A stretch of DNA of 64,000 nt from an uncultured Chlamydiales bacterium. GTDB taxonomy: Bacteria > Chlamydiota > Chlamydiia > Chlamydiales > JAAKFR01. Below the pieces are notes generated by a model. That model saw only the letters and a program-made list of their open reading frames with translations. It was not told where the DNA came from and searched no databases. The position numbers and the translations under genes are program-made. The stretch's first letter is position 1; each line of letters starts with the position of its first letter. Of this stretch, positions 26,091 to 29,014 are shown piece after piece. The stretch is taken from assembly GCA_963699155.1 (NCBI GenBank), contig OY969414.1, positions 1,931,757 to 1,995,756 on the forward strand, in the 5' to 3' direction.

Positions 26091-26172
26091 GTTTCATTTA
26101 GACTGCGACGGCAGCAGTTCTTCGAGCTTTCACTAGCGTTTCATTTTGACTGCGACGGCAGCAGCTCCTCGA
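26091..26172. repeat. 35-bp imperfect direct repeat duplicating the last codons of the DUF2231-like gene
   Basis: 26091-26125 vs 26138-26172, three mismatches. Confidence 0.85.
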
Positions 26173-26629
26173 CTGAGGGGGGCTCTCGCTTTTGGAAGGG
26201 AGTGGTGGTGAAGACGAGGACGCCGCCAAAGTCTGAAGCAAGAGTGATTAAGATGAGAAGGGCAATAGAAACAAACAAAGAGATCCATTGCCAATAGAGC
26301 CTGGGCATGTAGCGATTGACTATTTTGATGAGGGTGTAGAAGGCAACCACAGCAAAAGTGATGAATCCTAGTACACGGTGAAAGGCAAGATAACCATCAC
26401 CCACATAGTGCTTTGCAGCCTCCCATCCTGTCAGTATAGTTAATCCCGTAGTAACAAATGTAGCGAGTGTGAACCAAAAGGAAACTGTCTTTATCGTTTC
26501 ATTCCTGAGCATAAGGTATAAAACTTCTAAAACGAAGAGTGTACAGATAAAGACGATGGGAAAATGCAACAAAATGGGATGATAGCTCCCTAAGTTGAGC
26601 CAATAGGGCAAAGTGGTTGAAGTATCCAT
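26141..26629 (-). CDS. DUF2231-like four-helix membrane protein (putative heme b binding)
   Basis: YHPILLHFPI motif, TG..AA, H...G in a later helix. Confidence 0.8.
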   Translation of the reverse strand: MDTSTTLPYWLNLGSYHPILLHFPIVFICTLFVLEVLYLMLRNETIKTVSFWFTLATFVTTGLTILTGWEAAKHYVGDGYLAFHRVLGFITFAVVAFYTLIKIVNRYMPRLYWQWISLFVSIALLILITLASDFGGVLVFTTTPFQKREPPSVEELLPSQSK

Positions 26630-26635
26630 AAGAAG

Positions 26636-27010
26636 TTATTCTTTATATTTTGCGATGGCTGCTTTAATTTGGGCCAATTCAGTTTGTAATTTGTCTTCTG
26701 GCAAGTTTTTGAGAGCTTGGCGCAAAGCATCCTTTTTACTGGAAGCTGTGTAATAAATCATGAAGTCGAGAATCGTCTTTTGTTCATCTGCAGAAATATT
26801 GGCTCCCTCCATCTGGCTCATCTTAGTGATCATCGCCTGAATATCACTAGGAAGAAGCTCTGTCCCTGTTAGAGAAGTTTGAATATTATGGCATTTGGAA
26901 CATTTGACCTCGAAAACCTTAAAGTCATTCTGCAAAGTGGCTTTATCAGCTGCCTCAAGAGAGCTTATCATCCCCACAGTGAAGATGACAGCAAACGCTC
27001 TTTTCAACAT
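26636..27010 (-). CDS. Exported monoheme c-type cytochrome
   Basis: Signal peptide, CSKCH heme attachment motif, downstream Met residues as candidate axial ligand. Confidence 0.85.
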   Translation of the reverse strand: MLKRAFAVIFTVGMISSLEAADKATLQNDFKVFEVKCSKCHNIQTSLTGTELLPSDIQAMITKMSQMEGANISADEQKTILDFMIYYTASSKKDALRQALKNLPEDKLQTELAQIKAAIAKYKE

Positions 27011-27025
27011 TTTCCCCCCTTAAAA

Positions 27026-29014
27026 TTAATAGGCTAACACAAACTGGAGAGTGAAGAGGTTATTCCTAAACCCCACATCTCCCCAGTGGAAATCGTAACC
27101 TAATTTCAAACGGGCTACCGGTGTGAAATAATAGCTTCCACCGACAGTAAACTCATGGGCATTGTTGTCTAGAAGATCACTCCACCGACTACTGGCTCTC
27201 AGAGCAACTTCGGTGCTTCCCAAGAAACAGGGCGTAAAAAAGCGACTCAAGCAGAAAAAGCGATCTAGCCATGTCAAGAAGAAGGCATATTCTGCCCAGT
27301 ATCCTGACTGAACAATTCGCCCCGTCAAATTATCAAAATCGGACCAGATGTATTCCCCGCGAAAAACGGTATCGCTGGTAATATCCCAGTTCCAATCGAA
27401 AACGAATGCATCGAAGTAGAGATCGACGTTTGCCAATGGTCCCGTAATCACATTATTATTACTATTCCATTGCCCCCTCATGCCAGAAAAGCCGATTTCG
27501 AACCAGGGGTCATGCCAATAAGCGATACGGCCTCCATATGATTTATCTCGGTTATTGTCTGTATTCGTCGCAGCAAATGAGATGGTCGAACCTGTTTGGG
27601 TGGGACCATTTCCGACCCAGAACTCATAAGTCATAAAAGAACACCAGAAGCATCGGCCTAGAAAATGCAATGGAATCGCTCCCTTAAACTCGACGCCAAA
27701 ATCTGTCCCGGGAACAATAGCCGTATTCCTTATTAATGGGTTGGAGGGTAATTTATTGATCCAAGTTGCAGCATACCATGCGTCGAAAGTACCTAAAGGA
27801 AGGGGGAATTTCCCACACTGGAAGGTCAGCCAATCGTTGTAAAAGTAGGCGAGGTAGGCATAGACTAAAGTGGTTGTTGTGGTAGTTCCAGCCTGACTGA
27901 AAACCATTTTTGAAGCGAACAAAAAACTATCCCCGTAACGGGCCAACCAGATTGGCACCCATGCAGCCGAAAAGGTGTCATTGGCATGTTCTGGAACTTC
28001 GTAACTGAAAGTAAAGAAGCCAGTAAAGACAGTATTGATTTTTGGATGGGAAGCCACAAAGACGAGAGGTGAAGGAGGTGGCCCCCCACCTGCTGTCGTA
28101 GCTTGAGCCAACACATCTTCAATCCCTGCTTGACCTCCAGCAGCCTTTTCATCCTTTTTCTCTGTTCCACCCGCCTGATTTAACGCCGTATCAATGTTTG
28201 TTGAGGCAGGCGCATTTGCCTCCCCTTTCGAAGTTTGGCCTAGCACCGACTCAATATCGGATTTCGCTGCTGGAGCCGCCGCTGCCTCTTTTTCCCCCGC
28301 TGCAGGTGTTGCCGCTGGCGGTGCTGGTGCGGGAGCGGGAGGCTCCTCTTTTGGACCAAAGATCTTTCCAAAAATCCTCTCAAAGCGCTTTTTACGGGCA
28401 GTGCGGACCGTCACTGTGCCGTAAGGTTCACCCATCAAGAAGCTGGTAATTTTTCGATAGTCGCAAGCAGGCATGGGGATAATGACGCGCATGTGCATCA
28501 TGATGGTTTTCCACTCATCTGGGCCAAACTCACCAGGACGTCGTTTGACGTGGACAGCCTGCGCCCAATCCTTATAAATATCAGCTCCAGGCGGTTGTAA
28601 AGGGCACAAATAGCCACACTTGCTATAGGGTAGACAGTAGAGTCCCGCATCCTCACAAGGGACCTCTTCCCAAGGAGCATAGTCAGCATAATTGTCAGGG
28701 TCGCAGCAATCGATATATTCAATTTTTGGCGGAGGGGGAAAGCATGGAGGCATAGGTGGAGGACCACCTTCTGGCGGTGGGGGCACACCTGGAGGCAGCT
28801 CTGAAACACCTCCTTCTGGAGGTGGAGGAGCTCCAGCCCCAGGCGGGCCGCCAACAGCTGGTCCACCGCTCGGTGGCAGAGGCTGGCTCGCTTGTGCTAG
28901 ATGTTTGAATCCTTTCATATAAGGACAACTTCCCCTCTCATTTTGCGAGGTGGGATATCCCACAAGTGAAGCAGTAGAGGATAGCAGGAGAAAAAGTGAG
29001 AGCGCGGTTTTCAT
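27026..29014 (-). CDS. Outer-membrane porin-like beta-barrel with N-terminal Pro/Cys-rich and degenerate cytochrome-c-like domains
   Basis: Signal peptide; GKFPLPLG.F...WINKLP, DNNRDKSYGGR, FRGEY; terminal aromatic residue (FVLAY). Confidence 0.8.
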   Translation of the reverse strand: MKTALSLFLLLSSTASLVGYPTSQNERGSCPYMKGFKHLAQASQPLPPSGGPAVGGPPGAGAPPPPEGGVSELPPGVPPPPEGGPPPMPPCFPPPPKIEYIDCCDPDNYADYAPWEEVPCEDAGLYCLPYSKCGYLCPLQPPGADIYKDWAQAVHVKRRPGEFGPDEWKTIMMHMRVIIPMPACDYRKITSFLMGEPYGTVTVRTARKKRFERIFGKIFGPKEEPPAPAPAPPAATPAAGEKEAAAAPAAKSDIESVLGQTSKGEANAPASTNIDTALNQAGGTEKKDEKAAGGQAGIEDVLAQATTAGGGPPPSPLVFVASHPKINTVFTGFFTFSYEVPEHANDTFSAAWVPIWLARYGDSFLFASKMVFSQAGTTTTTTLVYAYLAYFYNDWLTFQCGKFPLPLGTFDAWYAATWINKLPSNPLIRNTAIVPGTDFGVEFKGAIPLHFLGRCFWCSFMTYEFWVGNGPTQTGSTISFAATNTDNNRDKSYGGRIAYWHDPWFEIGFSGMRGQWNSNNNVITGPLANVDLYFDAFVFDWNWDITSDTVFRGEYIWSDFDNLTGRIVQSGYWAEYAFFLTWLDRFFCLSRFFTPCFLGSTEVALRASSRWSDLLDNNAHEFTVGGSYYFTPVARLKLGYDFHWGDVGFRNNLFTLQFVLAY

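Follow-up and report, generated by a model that had tools for sequence, protein, structure and literature searches.

Two kinds of described system come closest to the locus analyzed here. In Cyc2, according to the accessible sections of Keffer et al. (2021, PMC8406198), a haem is predicted at the pore, where it would serve a dissolved substrate. The MtrAB/MtoAB/PioAB, PCC3, PCC4, and Verrucomicrobia porin-multihaem clusters each combine a porin with a periplasmic cytochrome and an inner-membrane protein (available portions of PMC5566968, PMC5615132, and PMC13741234). A likewise composed locus lies in the window studied here, a 64,000-nt stretch of DNA from an uncultured Chlamydiales bacterium. 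We read this operon, at a probability of roughly 0.45, as a Cyc2-like outer-membrane redox gate of split origin that is wired to respiration.

Genes and proteins of the locus

The preliminary description had listed three co-oriented genes separated by 15 and 6 nt, and the ORFs bear this out, with the porin, cytochrome, and DUF2231 genes on the same (-) strand and all reading frames in the window intact (Table 1). No (-)-strand promoter passed a promoter scan, and none of the three module proteins was named above a cut-off by NCBIfam. The DUF234 ATPase and the IS3-type transposase beside the module mark the site as an island, and the 42-nt repeat at the 3' end of the DUF2231 gene is possibly an insertion scar.

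Table 1. Features of the module and its flanks, in window coordinates
Feature	Position	Strand	Remarks
Plug-porin gene, 662 aa	27026..29014	(-)	ORF; signal-like N-terminus, Pro/Gly linker, Cys-rich segment, cysteine-free cytochrome domain, Ala/Pro linker, 16-strand barrel
Plug-porin hydrophobic N-terminus, residues 1-19	28958..29014	(-)	Likely Sec signal, judged from hydropathy alone
Plug-porin Cys-rich segment, residues 91-137	28604..28744	(-)	Common to five close homologues; low model confidence
Cysteine-free class I cytochrome c domain (predicted), residues 141-196	28427..28594	(-)	AQAVH for CxxCH; His155 28550-28552, Met175 28490-28492
Outer-membrane barrel (modelled), 16 strands, residues 326-662	27029..28039	(-)	In-folded loop, residues 412-419, at 27758-27781
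Exported monohaem cytochrome c (from sequence), 124 aa	26636..27010	(-)	CSKCH 26888-26902, Met64 26819-26821, C-terminal helical extension
DUF2231 inner-membrane protein, 162 aa	26141..26629	(-)	Conserved His17, His22, His84
42-nt direct repeat	26084..26172	no strand	Copies 86% identical, 47 nt apart; duplicates DUF2231 gene 3' end
Flank outside module: archaeal-type ATPase (DUF234, low GC) and IS3-type transposase	29093..32323	(+)	

The C-terminal part of the 662-aa protein, initially described as an outer-membrane beta-barrel, folds in an AlphaFold2 model as a barrel of 16 long strands (pLDDT 83.8), which refutes a non-barrel C-terminus. Its Foldseek matches are general porins (9-13% identity), and OprO and OprP are the solved sequences nearest to its profile (E 1e-4 and 1e-3). 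The protein contains no CxxCH, matches no Pfam family at E 0.01, and does not reach the cut-off of PF07396, which the homologues P0004 and P0010 do pass. A metagenome scan for its Cys-rich subgroup (P0002, P0003, P0031, P0037, and P0041) confirmed no locus; the Cys-rich segment is possibly disulfide-bonded.

The sequence of the 124-aa protein shows a hydrophobic N-terminal stretch (residues 4-18, a signal by hydropathy), CSKCH at residues 37-41 as the sole CxxCH of the cluster, and an invariant Met64 in the distal position; with a maturation system in the genome, this evidence points to a c-type cytochrome of class I. The closest solved structure to its family is cytochrome cz (E 6e-6). As had been noted, maturation genes are absent from the window (no Pfam maturation family among the 47 window proteins scanned), and the suggested genome search found a ResB/CcsA system elsewhere in the source genome. 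The haem synthesis genes reported for the window hold up in part: hemL passes TIGR00713, whereas the hemJ-like gene matches PF03653 but misses the TIGR00701 cut-off. The expectation that c-type cytochromes would be surprising here did not hold, since CcsA is encoded by 109 of 401 genomes in the phylum and both a cbb3 oxidase and a bc complex had been reported for environmental chlamydiae (accessible text of PMC9816063).

The protein singled out earlier by its HPxxxHFPI motif is indeed a DUF2231 protein (PF09990; 44.6 bits against a cut-off of 26.4), its HPILLHFPI fitting HPxxxHFP. Both His17 and His22 are invariant in 13 aligned rows, and His84 is kept in at least 90%. DUF2231 adjoins the module in seven of nine chlamydial loci, an adjacency that suggests a link from the module to the inner membrane; among non-chlamydial loci, it occurs in none of 80 with relatives of the 124-aa cytochrome and in 2 of 80 with the intact plug family described below.

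The cysteine-free domain and its predicted place in the barrel

Overlooked by the preliminary description was a second cytochrome c domain, at porin residues 141-196, in which CxxCH has become AxxVH (AQAVH), while His155 and Met175 are kept. Its profile aligns with an intact-CxxCH family at E 1.9e-11, and 114 of its 150 profile matches carry CxxCH. The model comprises three helices (pLDDT about 90) and resembles small cytochromes c, which take the first four places among its structural matches; Z is 5.7-6.1 and rmsd 2.5-3.4 A over 54-63 residues for DHC, SorB, and cytochrome cz, a Z near 6 being modest for a helical domain. Foldseek returned nothing at E 0.001 (best, SorB and an amine dehydrogenase haem domain), and the profile gave a single weak match to PDB sequences (E 0.99). 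In the ESM Atlas, the homologue P0011 drew unnamed clusters first and then ones in which a minority of members carry Cytochrom_C (33%) or DHC (34%), no more than a lead. Sequence and model together show that the domain has the class I fold of a cytochrome c, with His and Met at the axial positions. It and the 124-aa cytochrome belong to distinct families, since their profile comparison is insignificant (probability 0.5%), and a non-standard covalent haem motif is ruled out because no Cys adjoins His155.

The plug is predicted to dock in the periplasmic mouth of the barrel, with a score of 0.90 against 0.01 for the best of three controls; the runs share at least 96% of contacts, with a partner pLDDT of at least 77. 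The mark applied is reached by 116 of 157 solved complexes and by 2 of 215 mismatched pairs, counts that are only roughly valid here, and the score covers protein only, with haem outside it. Predicted contacts involve the periplasmic turns and the in-folded loop 412-419, where I419 lies beside His155. Of 80 loci of the intact plug family, from several phyla, 77 also hold this porin family, at most 300 nt away in 76. A candidate co-variation between barrel position 367 (acid) and plug position 178 (Arg) was dropped as too thin, with acidic/Arg in 67 of 68 intact pairs, four chlamydial pairs kept, two with both residues lost, and one mismatched; these residues form no listed contact pair. The envelope conduit first envisaged stands as a redox route, by gene context, but not with the 124-aa cytochrome as the partner of the porin, which the modelling predicts to be its own fused cysteine-free domain.

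Distribution, respiratory context, and alternative readings

A porin with this plug is present in 7 of 400 genomes of the phylum. Conservation of the cluster, raised as a check at the outset, extends to four other genomes that hold the porin-cytochrome-DUF2231 set, a recurrence that is not chance. Even so, the module is rare and often partial: among drafts 91-96% complete, G346 and G277 have the cytochrome and DUF2231, with porin and plug not found, and G222 has the cytochrome with ResB/CcsA only. Two genomes of the same genus, when searched, lacked the module, and an eighth porin match, in G348 (E 3e-5), was dropped from the family count because no cytochrome adjoins it.

Partial modules are one reason to consider that the plug is haem-free, a structural gate or assembly partner in a porin that admits a small redox-active solute to the periplasm, with the intact 124-aa cytochrome there as the only redox center, or, in the weakest form, that the whole chlamydial module is a decaying remnant of an ancestral conduit. 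This alternative, which we regard as doubtful, draws further on (i) G092, whose weak CcsA match has neither a ResB-like ORF nor a cytochrome beside it, and on (ii) the window barrel, which sits on a long branch and is devoid of the acidic residues at positions 367, 369, 371, and 384 that are kept in 84-96% of intact-family barrels, a loss compatible with drift or with an altered role. It draws also on (iii) the history of the domain: all 14 cysteine-free barrels form one clade (support 100/98), so that both thioether cysteines were lost once, in one ancestor, and the 27 cysteine-free copies are not independent. The distal position, Met in 113 of 114 intact-CxxCH relatives, drifts in these copies among Met (7), His (6), and Lys (14), the last an uncommon haem ligand. 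Against a haem-free plug, all 27 copies retain the proximal His, and none has a non-ligand residue at the distal position; ten positions are invariant across eight domains from five families of the phylum, and the frames in the window are intact.

A respiratory connection is suggested by the loci of the 124-aa cytochrome relatives. Directly upstream of the cytochrome, these 80 loci carry this porin (53), the plug cytochrome (4), a Cyc2-like gene (5), or nothing recognized (18, 13 of them with <1.5 kb of sequence on that side), and downstream an NAD(P)-flavoprotein (46), a Rieske protein (32), and a cytochrome b (27), complexes that we take to be of the anammox type. The source genome (G000) contains a flavoprotein-Rieske/b-cbb3 operon at C1:361832-371134, and in G162 the Rieske gene stands on one side of the module and the cytochrome b-heptahaem-CcoN-CcoO genes on the other, an arrangement that crosses a contig break. 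The proposed acceptor chain is not universal: both a bc-type cytochrome b and CcoN are missing from G169, G222, and G363.

Copper genes provide a competing context. Among 80 loci of the intact plug family, copper-resistance genes (copper ATPase, multicopper oxidase, CusA/B or CopB) turn up in 19, the same number as respiratory genes; the barrels of that family are acidic (mean net charge -18), and other DUF2231 genes of the phylum adjoin multicopper oxidase and efflux genes. A haem plug could then act at the pore, shifting the oxidation state of copper or handling another metal that is toxic or required, in order to detoxify it or take it up, which would be useful inside a protist host, with the three histidines of DUF2231 binding metal. 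We judge this improbable, since none of the three copper genes tested occurs in the 80 loci of the window's own cytochrome family, no copper gene was recognized among the ORFs listed for the chlamydial loci of the module, and a split with 98% support in the barrel tree places the chlamydial barrels with 11 of 14 porins from loci of the 124-aa cytochrome type, apart from all 13 copper-linked barrels. That the cysteine-free domain receives or buffers haem beneath the pore, with DUF2231 and the cytochrome c relaying haem or a redox signal inward, is highly improbable: lost covalent attachment would permit haem exchange and ResB/CcsA adjoins the module's cytochrome in three genomes, but the genome encodes haem synthesis, no sensor or transporter gene is conserved beside chlamydial modules, and a 16-strand general-porin pore is, by established porin sizes, likely too narrow for haem. 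Among the redox, metal-acquisition, and sensing roles originally offered, it is the respiratory link that gains support, the other two being less well supported.

We therefore return to a Cyc2-like redox gate wired to respiration. The sequence shows that the barrel, cytochrome-fold domain, c-type cytochrome, and DUF2231 protein are encoded together and that the genome has ResB/CcsA to mature the c-type cytochrome, beside which this system is kept in three genomes. The plug is predicted to sit beneath the in-folded loop of the pore and, as ResB/CcsA is unable to attach haem without CxxCH, would hold a non-covalent haem b, likely between His155 and Met175. This haem would take electrons from a small dissolved reductant, for example Fe(II), a guess by analogy with Cyc2, and pass them to the 124-aa cytochrome c. 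From there, gene order suggests, they may enter the flavoprotein-Rieske/cytochrome b-heptahaem-cbb3 chain or, in genomes that lack it, reach the quinone pool by way of DUF2231. Electron uptake is favored slightly over export to an outside acceptor.

More tentatively, the module may belong to a widespread unnamed family of two-gene Cyc2 analogues, each a 16-strand porin with a separate plug cytochrome, that would serve flavoprotein-linked Rieske/cytochrome b complexes as their front end in the outer membrane. The chlamydial plug would then have turned into a naturally occurring b-type cytochrome with the fold of a cytochrome c, and these host-dependent bacteria would have a functional route for electron exchange with dissolved metals, either in the vacuole of the host or in the environment. 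Cyc2 screening discards porins without a haem motif (methods text available from PMC8406198), so such porin-plug pairs would be overlooked, and, if the proposal is right, screens that demand CxxCH on the porin chain miss both the two-gene and the cysteine-free forms. The few known outer-membrane electron gates would also be joined by a new architecture, spread over Verrucomicrobiota, Planctomycetota, Bacteroidota, and Pseudomonadota. Finding such a gate in chlamydiae that depend on a host would alter views on how these bacteria gain energy or deal with metals. A cytochrome c fold that has lost both cysteines and kept its iron ligands would be a natural test of why haem c is covalent, and with a plug of ~60 residues the key claim is cheap to test.

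Comparison with known systems

The main text of PMC9816063 does not contain the word "porin" or describe an outer-membrane front end. Literature searches on DUF2231 and on the combined module terms, covering sources outside most subscription journals and all supplements (those of PMC5566968 or PMC9816063 could list such genes), returned nothing related, and the accessible literature on Cyc2 with Chlamydiae showed no link between the two. The operon that follows the module in relatives, like that of G000, corresponds to flavoprotein-linked Rieske/cytochrome b complexes and to chlamydial PetBD/CcoNO as given in the available text of PMC9816063.

Among small class I cytochromes, the best solved matches to the 124-aa family and to the plug model are cytochrome cz (3a9f, 7uea), SorB (2blf), and DHC (2fwt, 3u99). 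None of these covalent c-type proteins plugs a porin; they serve in photosynthesis, sulfite oxidation, or transfer within the periplasm. The closest barrel sequences are the OprO/OprP phosphate porins, whereas in the present porin family the conserved charged positions are mostly acidic and the pairing with cytochromes is constant. Conduits of the MtrAB/PCC3/PCC4 type, as far as the accessible descriptions go, use multihaem cytochromes, barrels of at least 20 strands, and an inner-membrane five-helix HX13H protein; this locus has monohaem domains, 16 strands, one CxxCH in all, and DUF2231.

Nor is the module a Cyc2 member. The porin chain carries AQAVH where Cyc2 has CxxCH, and the AXPXFAR[Q/K][T/Y] and PXL motifs (given in the available text of PMC8406198) are absent around His155. 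Further, the plug comes from another cytochrome family and is usually a separate gene, fused in some lineages only, and the barrel profile gave no alignment with the one Cyc2-like protein compared (probability 1.6%). The likeness to Cyc2, as the accessible sections of PMC8406198 portray it, lies in one small N-terminal cytochrome domain and a 16-strand OprO/OprP-like barrel, with a hydrophobic N-terminus (residues 1-19) that may match the Cyc2 signal peptide, and Cyc2-like genes occupy the same operon slot as this porin in five loci.

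Genes of the module and its cysteine-free plug

The three minus-strand ORFs of the preliminary description, 15 and 6 nt apart, are seen directly in the window and encode proteins of 662, 124, and 162 aa; hemL and a hemJ-like gene are present as well. The third product is a DUF2231 protein by family match, and the second carries CSKCH and a Met conserved in all 29 aligned relatives, its family having cytochrome cz as best solved match (E 6e-6). For the 662-aa protein, a Pfam and NCBIfam scan assigned no family. The porin reading held for its barrel, residues 314-662, which model as 16 strands (pLDDT 83.8), resemble general porins in a structure search, and have OprO/OprP as nearest solved sequences in profile comparison, but it had missed a cytochrome domain at residues 141-196. 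In six other genomes, small proteins that adjoin related porins or are part of them align with this domain, the predicted plug.

A profile from eight plug domains matched 219 proteins. Among the best 150, 114 keep CxxCH (the intact family, for which "HMRVRA cytochromes" is our own label, taken from its motif), 27 are cysteine-free with the His kept, seven are gapped, and two have one Cys. The distal position in these 150 is Met in 113 of the 114 intact relatives, and Lys (14), Met (7), or His (6) in the 27 cysteine-free copies; the window plug retains both ligand positions, His155 and Met175. Four acidic residues conserved in intact-family barrels are missing from the window barrel. The plug models as three helices (pLDDT about 90); small class I cytochromes c take the top four places in a structural comparison, with modest Z scores of 5.7-6.1. 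Haem b can be bound by cytochrome c variants that lack the cysteines. A review (PMC13741234) mentions Lys and Met as the haem b ligands of FoxC. A haem-free or decaying plug, to which the lost cysteines and mixed distal residues would lend themselves, is less likely than a haem-binding one but the likeliest of the alternatives.

Pairing of plug and porin

Scanning genomes with 41 intact plug members matched 214 stretches, the best 80 of which, kept here, come mostly from Verrucomicrobiota, Planctomycetota, Bacteroidota, and Pseudomonadota. The same porin family occurs in 77 of these 80 loci (at most 300 nt away in 76), and a further CxxCH gene lies directly upstream of the porin in 52 and is fused to it in three. 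The fusions at L037, L040, and L068 (see table) are another convergent cytochrome-porin fusion. Verrucomicrobiota-type loci often have a PocR-AraC-type regulator close to their porin-cytochrome genes (L043, L044, L048, L051, L054-L056, L155, L182, L195, and L206); it was counted in 13 of the best 80 of 214 intact-plug loci and may be a pointer to the inducing signal.

Co-folding of the window barrel, plug, and haem scored 0.90 (best control, 0.01); across barrel-plug runs, at least 96% of contacts agreed, with partner pLDDT of at least 77. Among solved complexes, 116 of 157 attain the docking mark, against two of 215 mismatched pairs; these counts apply only roughly to our runs, which used their own alignments and a ligand. 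These predictions support plug-barrel binding, with modeled contacts to loop 412-419, where I419 would touch His155, and to turns that, judging from the strand order of the barrel model, probably face the periplasm. Sequence and structure searches of solved structures with the barrel found no comparable complex.

Respiratory neighbours, maturation, and distribution

Scanning metagenomes for relatives of the 124-aa cytochrome, with such relatives as queries, gave 413 confirmed stretches, of which 80 were kept. These 80 have the window's plug-porin-cytochrome order in 28, porin-plug-cytochrome in four, porin-cytochrome in 25 (many incomplete), and the cytochrome alone in 23; a Cyc2-like gene, judged by motif, occupies the porin-pair slot in five. 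Their neighbours include a flavoprotein (46), Rieske protein (32), cytochrome b (27), and six-haem cytochrome (11), and copper ATPase, multicopper oxidase, CusA, and DUF2231 each occur in none of the 80. Among the best 80 of 214 intact-plug loci, raw counts gave copper genes in 19, respiratory genes in 19, and none of the tested copper, respiratory, or maturation genes in 42. A quick tree of 51 barrels, rooted at the midpoint, united its 11 cysteine-free rows in one group (support 99) and placed them with 11 of 14 flavoprotein-Rieske-operon porins, on the other side of a split (support 98) from all 13 copper-linked rows; an earlier tree, with every second of 68 intact-family barrels (34), placed 14 cysteine-free rows in one clade mixing fused and split forms. 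Copper handling by the module, which the copper genes near some intact plugs would suit, is improbable in the light of this split and of the cytochrome's own neighbours; haem traffic or sensing is remoter still.

The window's genome, a single contig of 2.40 Mb whose size and gene content suit an environmental chlamydia, was checked for maturation genes and encodes CcsA (above cut-off) with an adjoining ResB-like gene. From its CxxCH list, its real c-type cytochromes are probably only the 124-aa protein and two from a respiratory operon, whose cytochrome b is 76-91% identical in eight of 11 relatives tested. The preliminary description noted that Chlamydiaceae are not known to use such cytochromes; they are ordinary here, because 109 of the phylum's 401 genomes encode CcsA (none of 30 in the family with 1.0-1.2-Mb genomes, inferred to be Chlamydiaceae) and CcoO/N and PetBD were already reported in chlamydiae by Dharamshi et al. 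(PMC9816063). It is the porin module that is not ordinary.

Within the phylum sample, own genome included, the cytochrome was found in nine of 400 genomes, the plug in seven of 400, and the porin query in eight of 401, one match being a weak, unrelated porin. The cluster is conserved, with all four parts together in five genomes (G000, the window's own, and G363, G169, G177, and G162); contig ends interrupt it in G284 and G321, G346 and G277 have only cytochrome and DUF2231, and G222 only the cytochrome with ResB/CcsA. In G162 the module follows flavoprotein and Rieske genes, and its DUF2231 begins at one contig end and resumes, as a fusion with another cytochrome, where a second contig ends; cytochrome b, heptahaem, CcoN, and CcoO genes lie on that second contig. 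ResB/CcsA adjoin the module cytochrome in G169, G222, and G363, genomes with no bc-type cytochrome b, CcoN, or PF00034 match; the module there therefore seems to be all that the maturation system serves, and it would require a different partner, probably DUF2231 and quinone. Since different genes occupy its site in two same-genus genomes, and its flank in the window holds an ATPase gene of low GC and an IS3-type transposase, the module was probably acquired as an island. The inverted repeats nearby suggest a structured RNA or mobile-element end. Elsewhere, the G284 membrane protein could be a ferric-reductase-like electron source, and the L117 cluster, in a genome of the phylum (G135) without a CcoN match, joins DUF2231 to an outer-membrane cytochrome in a second, independent cassette.

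Coordinates of the module and of other features observed
Location	Feature
window:26141-29014 (minus)	Module
window:26084-26172	Last ten codons and stop of DUF2231 gene, duplicated 47 nt downstream with synonymous changes
window:29067-29079 (minus)	Perfect -35 hexamer overlapping short near-palindrome, ~60 nt upstream of porin start; no -10 partner passed promoter scan
window:32615-33500	Three long inverted repeats (27-35 nt, 91-96% complementary) downstream of IS3 element
G000:C1:361832-371134 (L002)	Operon: NAD(P)-type flavoprotein, Rieske protein, cytochrome b, heptahaem cytochrome c, CcoN, CcoO
G000:C1:2160714-2170413	Two bo3-type quinol oxidase gene sets in tandem
L022:4508-8013 (G363)	Two tandem plug-porin fusions, DUF2231 between them on opposite strand
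L028:1370-2308 (G284)	Membrane protein, C-terminal FAD/NAD-binding-like part (partly masked), divergent to adjoining module cytochrome
L030:2203-3291 (G321)	MauG/MbnH-like dihaem protein adjoining plug and porin genes
L037:394-2292; L040:4225-5979; L068:792-2513 (Verrucomicrobiota)	Different intact CxxCH cytochrome on N-terminus of this porin family
L113:3-9000; L114:247-5723 (two genomes of phylum)	DUF2231 inside heavy-metal clusters (TolC-like, multicopper oxidase, efflux pump or P-type ATPase)
L117:5044-10546 (G135:C17)	DUF2231, ResB-like, CcsA, 384-aa Cyc2-like protein (near-consensus upstream motif, CxxCH, PxL), monohaem cytochrome c
L167, L182, L195 (3' ends)	Cytochrome-flavoprotein-Rieske-cytochrome b-hexahaem operons lacking upstream porin pair; Cyc2-motif gene downstream

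Proposed electron path and known systems

From parts, families, a maturation system, and gene neighbourhoods that are directly observed, we propose, at a probability of roughly 45%, that a docked haem plug passes electrons from a dissolved reductant to the 124-aa cytochrome and on to respiration or quinone. The plug, predicted to dock in the barrel mouth, would hold non-covalent haem on His155/Met175; reductant would enter the pore and reduce the plug, and the 124-aa cytochrome may then deliver electrons to the Rieske/b-cbb3 chain or, via DUF2231, to quinone.

The predicted plug-in-mouth arrangement is that proposed for Cyc2 in PMC8406198, Cyc2 itself being structurally unsolved according to the 2026 review (PMC13741234). 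The module resembles Cyc2 in its predicted working, although the window protein lacks Cyc2's defining motifs, and it is distinct from MtrAB, PCC3, PCC4, and the Verrucomicrobia multihaem clusters as the accessible text of their reports portrays them (PMC5566968, PMC5615132, PMC12442390, PMC9040806). The main texts searched, in the portions available, held no description of the plug-porin pair or of a chlamydial form. The module is a real, new variant of porin-cytochrome systems, with a putative function.
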